Of a stretch of 64,000 nucleotides of DNA, positions 40,951 to 41,412 are shown one piece after another. Within the stretch, counting starts at the first letter, position 1. Each line of letters starts with the position of its first letter. The DNA lies in the NCBI GenBank assembly GCA_964016885.1, contig OZ024752.1:10850001-10914000 (forward strand), given 5' to 3'. The DNA is from Eledone cirrhosa (Eukaryota). A model generated the notes under the pieces. That model was given only the letters and a program-made list of their open reading frames with translations, did not search any database and had not been told where the DNA came from. The position numbers were made by a program, and so were the translations under genes.

Positions 40951-41046
40951 ACCCCGACGGCAGAGCTCAAGCCGTTTCGACGGCTATTTCTGGACTAAAT
41001 TCGAATTTTTAGCCTGTTGAATAAATAGCCGAACTTGTCAATGGTG
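40951..41046 (-). ncRNA. U3-A8 variant hammerhead with extended stem II
   Basis: Minus strand: cca-TTGACAA-gtt-cggctattt..aaatagccg-tc-GAAA-cggc-ttgagctct-gccg-TC-ggggt. Confidence 0.75.
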
Positions 41047-41316
41047 TACCTCCTTATATGAGAAGATTGTATTTGTCAAGAGGATTGTTTAAAATTTGTT
41101 GTAATATATAAAGATACATGTACAAACACACTTACATATATATATATATATATGGGAGGTAGGGGTGGCTGAACTTGCTCCACTCACTCCCCCATTGTTC
41201 TACAGGCAAGTTCAGCCACCCTGCCTCCCACCAAATGCCATGATAGACTTATTTGTGTTTACAACAAATTTTAACCAATTCTCTTGACAACTACAATCTT
41301 CCCATATAAGGAGTTA

Positions 41317-41412
41317 TCCACTTGACAAGTTCGGGTATTTATTCAACAGGCTAAAACTTCTAATTTAGTCCAGAAATAGCCGTCGAAACAGCTTGAGCTC
41401 TGCCGTCGGGGT
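41317..41412 (+). ncRNA. U3-A8 variant hammerhead with extended stem II
   Basis: ccac-TTGACAA(41322)-[56 nt]-GAAA(41385)-cagc-ttgagctct-gccg-TC-gggg. Confidence 0.7.

Follow-up and report, generated by a model that had tools for sequence, protein, structure and literature searches.

Damaged copies of a repeat end, likely from a Penelope-like element (PLE), carry a type I hammerhead motif with a U3-A8 core

The stretch of DNA analysed here, 64,000 nucleotides in length and referred to below as the window, is AT-rich, animal-type DNA that is full of (TA)n tracts and holds several retroelement remnants. The (TA)n tracts swamped the repeat finder, and 9,191 of the 64,000 bases were masked as simple repeats before BLAST. 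Masked BLAST and an nhmmer profile located seven partial copies of one hammerhead-bearing repeat, here termed family C, at four loci, and neither search found further family C loci in the window (Table 1). Four of the seven copies lack the 5' core through deletion or truncation. The family had been called abundant in a preliminary description of this sequence, a word which the window matches only to the extent of these seven incomplete copies.

Table 1. Features discussed in the text, in coordinates of the window.
Feature	Position	Strand	Remarks
Locus 1, inverted pair, each copy truncated within loop II	10352..10552	.	tail 10477-10552
Locus 2, inverted pair, internal deletions removing the 5' core from both copies	13844..14462	.	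tail 13844-13919
Locus 3, head-to-head pair between (TA)n tracts	40860..41427	.	likely single PLE insertion
Locus 3 tail, 75 nt past the end common to tailless copies	40860..40934	-	ends in (TA)n
Locus 3 fold-back junction between arms	41154..41230	.	25-nt inverted copy of upstream element sequence
Hammerhead motif 40951-	40951..41041	-	U3 41041, A8 41036, GAAA 40978-40975, C17 40956
Helix II of 40951-	41031-41023/40989-40981	-	
Competing 6-bp hairpin with CGAA loop (40951-)	40970..40985	-	predicted minor in context (P about 0.01 to 0.11)
Hammerhead motif 41317+	41322..41427	+	U3 41322, A8 41327, GAAA 41385-41388, C17 41407
Locus 4, tailed copy and inverted tailless stub	50461..51026	.	tail 50461-50537
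Hammerhead motif 50598- (second subfamily)	50599..50682	-	U3 50682, A8 50677, G12 50621, C17 50599
41-nt insertion starting exactly after C17 of 50598-	50558..50598	-	A-runs and two patches
Internal control, different family	39504..40568	+	GIY-YIG remnant and canonical CUGAAGA hammerhead
Copies of the ~220-nt dispersed repeat	1337-1556, 2477-2698, 15521-15710, 44173-44351, 53487-53677, 58691-58884, 60411-60633, 62017-62761, others		

The core heptamer TTGA(C/T)AA is present in all three copies that keep the 5' core (40951-, 41317+ and 50598-), where the RNA reads UUGA(C/U)AA-G. This is followed by one arm of helix II, a loop of 31-33 nt, the other arm of helix II, C-GAAA, helix III and GUC. 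GAAA occurs in all seven copies and GUC in six, with GUG in copy 14422+, and the UH box is present in six of the seven. Family C accordingly carries the core boxes of a type I hammerhead (N3-UGAN-N8-A, GAAA, UH and a Watson-Crick pair between positions 3 and 8). The three cores and the GUC site had been recognised in the preliminary description and were recovered here; an inner hairpin, also described there, is predicted within loop II. Helix II is closed by G10.1-C11.1, which is G-C in the three cores and predicted to be weak (P 0.04-0.13), and a 2x1 U loop separates this pair from a helix of 8-9 bp. The nine-pair stem reported earlier is complete in 40951- (9/9) and falls one pair short in both 41317+ (8/9, G.G) and 50598- (8/9, U.U). 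Helix III starts with A15.1-U16.1 in every copy (A-U, 7/7), and its five core-proximal pairs are intact in five of seven. The ACGGC/GCCGT stem III is present as described but broken in 41317+ (ACAGC), a copy that lies within the segment to which that description referred. Compensatory changes number zero in 22 pairs over the seven copies, a count based on just 3-7 sequences per pair.

Helix I is defective in all three core-bearing copies, forming pairs in 5 of 15 cells (33%). The defect is an A.G mismatch at the junction in 40951-, an A.G mismatch at the second pair in 41317+ and the 41-nt insertion at C17 in 50598-, where the 5' arm of helix I (CCCC) is intact. None of the three core-bearing copies combines its core with an adjoining, sound helix I, and as helix I is broken within single copies these are not classed as intact ribozymes: no family C copy in the window is an intact ribozyme. 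Copy 41317+ is also mismatched in helices II and III and is predicted to misfold (P 0.0 for helix III and 0.02 for helix II), while in 40951- and 50598- helices II and III are predicted to form, with P 0.95-0.99 at their central pairs. The preliminary description was silent on the damage to helix I, on the damage to all three copies and on the PLE context. Cleavage assays that took the genomic copies as "wild type" would probably yield no product, for trivial reasons. Disruption of the helix I closing pair is the basis of a deletion mutant used by Cervera and de la Pena (PMC4209133).

All four loci are head-to-head pairs in which an inverted, 5'-truncated copy lies at the other end, and each has a tail of 75-77 nt at one end only. 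Inverted 5'-truncated copies, a tail that is often confined to one end and (TA)n targets are given as hallmarks of PLEs by Craig et al. (PMC8557442), and the tail has been explained by two internal start sites of the reverse transcriptase (RT; Frangieh et al., PMC11167929). The tailless copies of family C share an end just after helix I (for 41317+, at 41427), and the partner copy extends 75-77 nt beyond it. Tails are identical at 65-74 positions between pairs, and their predicted folds are unremarkable in all four cases (z -0.01 to 0.77). All eight copy ends lie in (TA)n, which is weak evidence on its own as the window is rich in (TA)n. The arms of locus 3 are copies 40951- and 41317+, identical at 160 of 176 positions, and a single long duplex (-312 kcal/mol) is the predicted fold of its plus-strand RNA; in any read-through RNA over both arms, this duplex would silence both motifs. 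The inverted tailless stub of locus 4 measures 15 nt (51012-51026). At locus 1 the 3' arm of helix I, GGGGUU, is intact.

Several further observations concern the surroundings of these copies. Two family C copies joined inside loop II make 10352-10473 a near-perfect palindrome, which would permit a cruciform or a long dsRNA. An inverted duplication (50725-51046 and 51193-51514, 98% identical, with a (TA)n spacer) covers the upstream part of locus 4 and reflects either a recent fold-back or a fault in the assembly. On the sense strand, about 105-120 nt upstream of the core, lies a pyrimidine tract ending in AG/G (50787-50850 on the minus strand, 14058-14095 on the minus strand and 41178-41205 on the plus strand), which contains the branch-point-like word TACTAAC in 50598-; judged from its sequence, the tract is a possible candidate for the 3' splice site of a pseudo-LTR (pLTR) intron. 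In copies of the first subfamily TTGACAA occurs once more, 38 nt ahead of the core (41284-41290 on the plus strand, with homologues in 40951- and 14422+). It was rejected as an alternative core, being missing from 50598- and having no helix II partner by inspection. Likewise, hammerheads on the opposite strand were rejected after a two-strand descriptor scan found none at the family C loci.

Other elements of the window include a useful internal control from a different family, in which the same anatomy accompanies a GIY-YIG remnant (39714-40088, plus strand; Pfam GIY-YIG, E 4.9e-5). Its inverted tailless copy spans 39504-39706, and its direct copy bears a tail of ~58 nt. The control GIY-YIG is 53-64% identical to that of an RT-bearing element at 31995-33313 on the minus strand, whose RT frame (32270-33313) continues into the GIY-YIG domain. 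Broken RT/endonuclease remnants of PLE type, from at least two lineages, are seen at these two places and at 5102-6084 (minus strand) and 43001-43297 (plus strand). Pfam named two of eight RT/EN remnants, and both RT remnants that were compared resemble eukaryotic clusters carrying RVT_1 and HTH_animal. Three more hammerhead families, with canonical C3-G8 cores and inverted arrangements, lie at 14580-14776, at 34990-35061 and at 39668-39702 together with about 40306-40345; canonical C3-G8 hammerheads give four descriptor matches against 0.12 in shuffles, and 34990-35061 matches Rfam HH9 with E 4.6e-6, below the gathering threshold (38.1 versus 52 bits). Decayed hammerhead-like remnants with damaged cores, a C-rich leader and CGAAACG are found at 11270-11370 and 13610-13720 (minus strand) and at 20090-20200 (plus strand). 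A PLE-type RT remnant (48031 to about 48900) is followed closely, at 48992-49021 on the plus strand, by what reads as a compact minimal U3-A8 hammerhead, in which helices I and II measure 4 bp each and helix III is palindromic; it is unrelated to family C, and a single match of this kind does not exceed what shuffles give by chance (mean 0.2, maximum 2). The window further contains a reverse transcriptase frame of non-LTR type that is long, looks intact and by eye resembles L2/CR1 (36386-37912, minus strand), an inverted duplication of 871 nt with 99.7% identity (25677-26546 and 28465-29335) and an array of tandem repeats with ~41-nt period (22341-23015). An abundant dispersed repeat of ~220 nt, with copies of 74-98% identity, may be an octopus SINE, which it resembles.

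The reading which best accommodates these data, held with a probability of about 0.65, is that family C represents damaged copies of a repeat end, likely a PLE pLTR, whose master element is predicted to encode a U3-A8 type I hammerhead that cuts after GUC, probably slowly. PLEs are built of an RT with a C-terminal GIY-YIG domain (PMC4209133). No RT or GIY-YIG frame could be linked to family C by tblastn within the window, and membership in the PLEs is thus argued from anatomy. Reading frames upstream of the motif were not found in the window; the copies are 5'-truncated, and the 230-240 nt further upstream at loci 2 and 4 hold none. Rfam returned no match to family C copies at the gathering threshold and, for loci 3 and 4, none to the hammerhead clan CL00010 even at E 10, where what appears is mostly miRNA models matching microsatellites or fold-backs. 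This miss is attributed to the long helix III and the long loop II, and since 31-33 nt of loop II place the core halves 54-56 nt apart, standard descriptors would miss the motif as well. That Rfam is blind to this geometry suggests that PLE ribozymes are undercounted. The exact 24-nt core has zero loci in bacterial and archaeal genomes, and the open-licence literature yielded no paper that treats family C or insertions at the cut sites of PLE hammerheads. Lunse et al. 2017 may, reportedly, already list similar variants.

How such a master RNA might fold was approached by combining strands of different copies, and a complete hammerhead fold is predicted only when 50598- contributes the 5' part and a sister copy the 3' strand. 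With 10432+, which belongs to the same subfamily, the MFE structure is a complete hammerhead with open core strands, helices II and III formed and a helix I of 6 bp (P 0.82-1.00) plus a distal extension. Of the five 3' strands tried, four let the 5' part of 50598- form the junction pairs with P of at least 0.94, and none gave a helix I with the 5' strand of 40951- or of 41317+ (junction P at most 0.13). All of these, like the hairpin shares given below, are nearest-neighbour predictions, which also fill the canonical hammerhead cores of the window with spurious pairs. Helix III and loop III together are nearly palindromic, and a strand-swapped dimer formed through helix III is predicted to gain -13.9 to -16.5 kcal/mol; palindromic loops III have been described for PLE hammerheads as a dimer feature (PMC4209133). 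The master RNA would, on these models, adopt a three-way junction of type I with a U3-A8 core, two copies could exchange helix III strands to form a dimer, and monomer or dimer would be cut after GUC, probably slowly. If family C behaves as described in the PLE literature, RT would start internally, at two sites just past the ribozyme, giving rise to tailless and tailed ends, and cleavage may require the protein of the element.

The most serious alternative holds that the sequence is indeed a PLE end, with a hammerhead already dead or nearly dead in the master and a fold kept for RT binding or initiation. Published data on the activity of U3-A8 cores conflict. Activity of a natural U3-A8 hammerhead in vitro is cited in PMC3088659, whereas the pairwise mutagenesis of PMC9901934, a single deep mutational scan, reports rescue of activity by the G3-C8 swap alone and none for U3-A8 double mutants. 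Moreover, PLE insertion in vitro is reported to be unaffected by hammerhead mutants, and RNA-seq ends at the cut site were not found in Anolis (PMC11167929). Within family C, helix I is poor in both first-subfamily copies, and the tail (68/75 identical between 40951- and 50598-) is about as conserved as the ribozyme motif, so that conservation is not specific to catalysis. Against a dead master stand the core boxes, which are invariant except at N7 while the intervening loop II drifts. Between the same two copies, the core, helices and loop III agree at 50 of 53 positions with N7 as the single core difference, compared with 21 of 31 in loop II (Fisher p 0.003) and 33 of 54 in the upstream 60 nt (Fisher p 4e-5), for regions that were drawn only after the structure had been seen. 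The perfect 6-bp helix I found across copies of the second subfamily and the insertion exactly at the scissile bond of 50598- likewise speak against it. Loss of activity in the master is thus considered unlikely, if the strongest of the competing accounts, and a slow but active master ribozyme remains the preferred reading.

The insertion in 50598- deserves separate consideration. It replaces one G of the 3' strand. Besides the A-runs it contains 9 nt that match the minisatellite in the flank and 10 nt that are complementary to the tail of the element itself, the latter patch ending in a 2-nt overlap with U16.1-C17. The chance of an insertion falling within 1 nt of C17 is ~1% for a single insertion and ~9% across roughly 10 breakpoints. 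Read in the direction of cDNA synthesis, the insertion fits an RT jump from a cleaved fragment to the other cut end, in what is a single case. The copy might therefore be a genomic fossil of hammerhead cleavage in vivo. RT would have started in the tail and run off the 5' end of the cleaved 3' fragment. It would next have taken 41 nt from A-runs, from flanking DNA and from the cDNA it had made, and then jumped to the C17 end across a 2-nt GA/UC overlap. This scenario as a whole is doubtful, and templated repair of a DNA break would explain the insertion equally well. Were it true, a U3-A8 hammerhead with a long helix III would cut PLE RNA in the germ line, and the cut RNA would still be retrotransposed. 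If insertions and breakpoints were to pile up at C17 genome-wide, genomes would record cleavage, and the question would be testable without bench work.

The preliminary description also pointed to a competing hairpin, AGCCGU/ACGGCU, that buries GAAA, and proposed it as a built-in off-switch, that is, a selected alternative fold which hides GAAA until flipped. The hairpin is real in isolation (-7.7 kcal/mol, z -3.2), pairs in 40 of 42 cells and lies just 2.4-2.9 kcal/mol above the ensemble with helices II and III in the two copies able to form it. Its predicted share in full-length copies is nevertheless only 0-11%, amounting to 1% in 40951- and 50598- and 0% in 41317+ with full flanks and to 3-11% with shorter flanks. 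It is predicted to dominate (0.5-0.97) only where the 5' arm of helix II is missing, as in the three such copies tested. Nascent prefixes are predicted to contain it at 21-74% at equilibrium over a stretch of ~12-15 nt that ends once helix III gains its 3' arm, but helix II has already formed (P of at least 0.98) before the 3' arm of the hairpin exists. The pairing shows neither covariation nor compensatory change, each of its bases is also accounted for by helix II or III, and in the two of seven copies where it is broken, 41317+ (ACAGC) among them, the same changes break helix III. GCCGU is common to the 3' arms of helices II and III, so that either one can pair with the 5' arm of helix III; the hairpin results from this and is likely a by-product of the shared arm sequence. 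A selected switch is consequently very improbable, and the hairpin would be, in the folding models, a transient intermediate at most. Some passing role during transcription is possible, and if the cleavage-fossil account of 50598- were true, the hairpin could serve as a delay timer during transcription.

The U3-A8 pair itself appears to belong to the family rather than to its decay. Both U3 and A8 are present in all three complete cores, across two subfamilies, with N7 as the only varying core position, and for this reason the pair is probably ancestral to family C; the preliminary description, which had taken it as fixed in the family and not as a decayed CUGANGA, is supported on this point. 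Its further remark that U3-A8 hammerheads are known but uncommon stands in its first half, yet PLE hammerheads of this type have ~1,300 matches in Schistosoma mansoni (PMC4209133). The heptamer alone carries no information, as TTGANAA occurs 61 times on the two strands of the window. The descriptor fitted to family C, which combined the core, helix II of at least 6 bp, GAAA, helix III of at least 5 bp and UH, matched two places in the window. Across 100 local shuffles it averaged 0.07 matches and never exceeded 1. The two places in the window are homologous and thus not independent. Mutation of a CUGANGA consensus to U3 and A8 after insertion would need only C-to-T and G-to-A transitions in an AT-rich genome, in copies that are damaged elsewhere too and with just three cores readable, two of them from one locus, but is the least credible account, as all three cores carry both changes and none a single one, and as the changes are common to subfamilies that differ at ~35-40% of flanking and loop II positions.

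Among known systems, non-LTR retrozymes (PMC7229834; bioRxiv 10.64898/2026.07.22.740005) share with family C a non-coding nature and a type I hammerhead, and have been proposed to derive from PLE pLTRs. They are described as head-to-tail tandem repeats, whereas the family C copies are arranged head-to-head at four of four loci, with head-to-tail tandem monomers at none. PLE insertions as described in PMC8557442 and PMC11167929 agree with family C in the inverted 5'-truncated copy, the tail at one end, the (TA)n surroundings and the pLTR hammerhead. They differ in having a tail of 30-40 nt (Craig et al. 2021, PMC8557442) as opposed to 75-77 nt, and in their ORF and direct tandem, both of which family C lacks in the window. 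Six short family C motifs gave zero matches in the Craig consensus supplement (PMC8557442), the text of which has line breaks that could hide some.

Fungal and protist PLE hammerheads, as presented in PMC4209133, resemble family C in a stable helix III, by which the motif is predicted to be able to fold as a monomer, and in the lack of a recognisable contact between loops I and II. Their elements are telomere-associated and endonuclease-deficient, in contrast to the (TA)n sites, animal-type genome and U3-A8 core of family C. The closest counterparts are the type I hammerheads of metazoan PLE pLTRs, including the U3-A8 families of S. mansoni, Cercyon (Cervera and de la Pena 2014, PMC4209133). 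These have the same type I topology, with a long helix II, a short helix I, a palindromic loop III and U3-A8 covariation, and likewise occur mostly as dispersed truncated copies with opposite-strand pairs 100-700 bp apart. Compared with the metazoan motifs shown there, family C lacks the extra base after A9, has the 2x1 U loop after G10.1-C11.1 and the inner hairpin in its loop II of 31-33 nt, and extends helix III to 5-6 bp with a palindromic loop of 7-9 nt, against about 1-4 bp in the Fig. S3 rows compared. As a likely PLE hammerhead, family C is therefore a further family, in which a core variant already published is combined with a long loop II and a long palindromic helix III.
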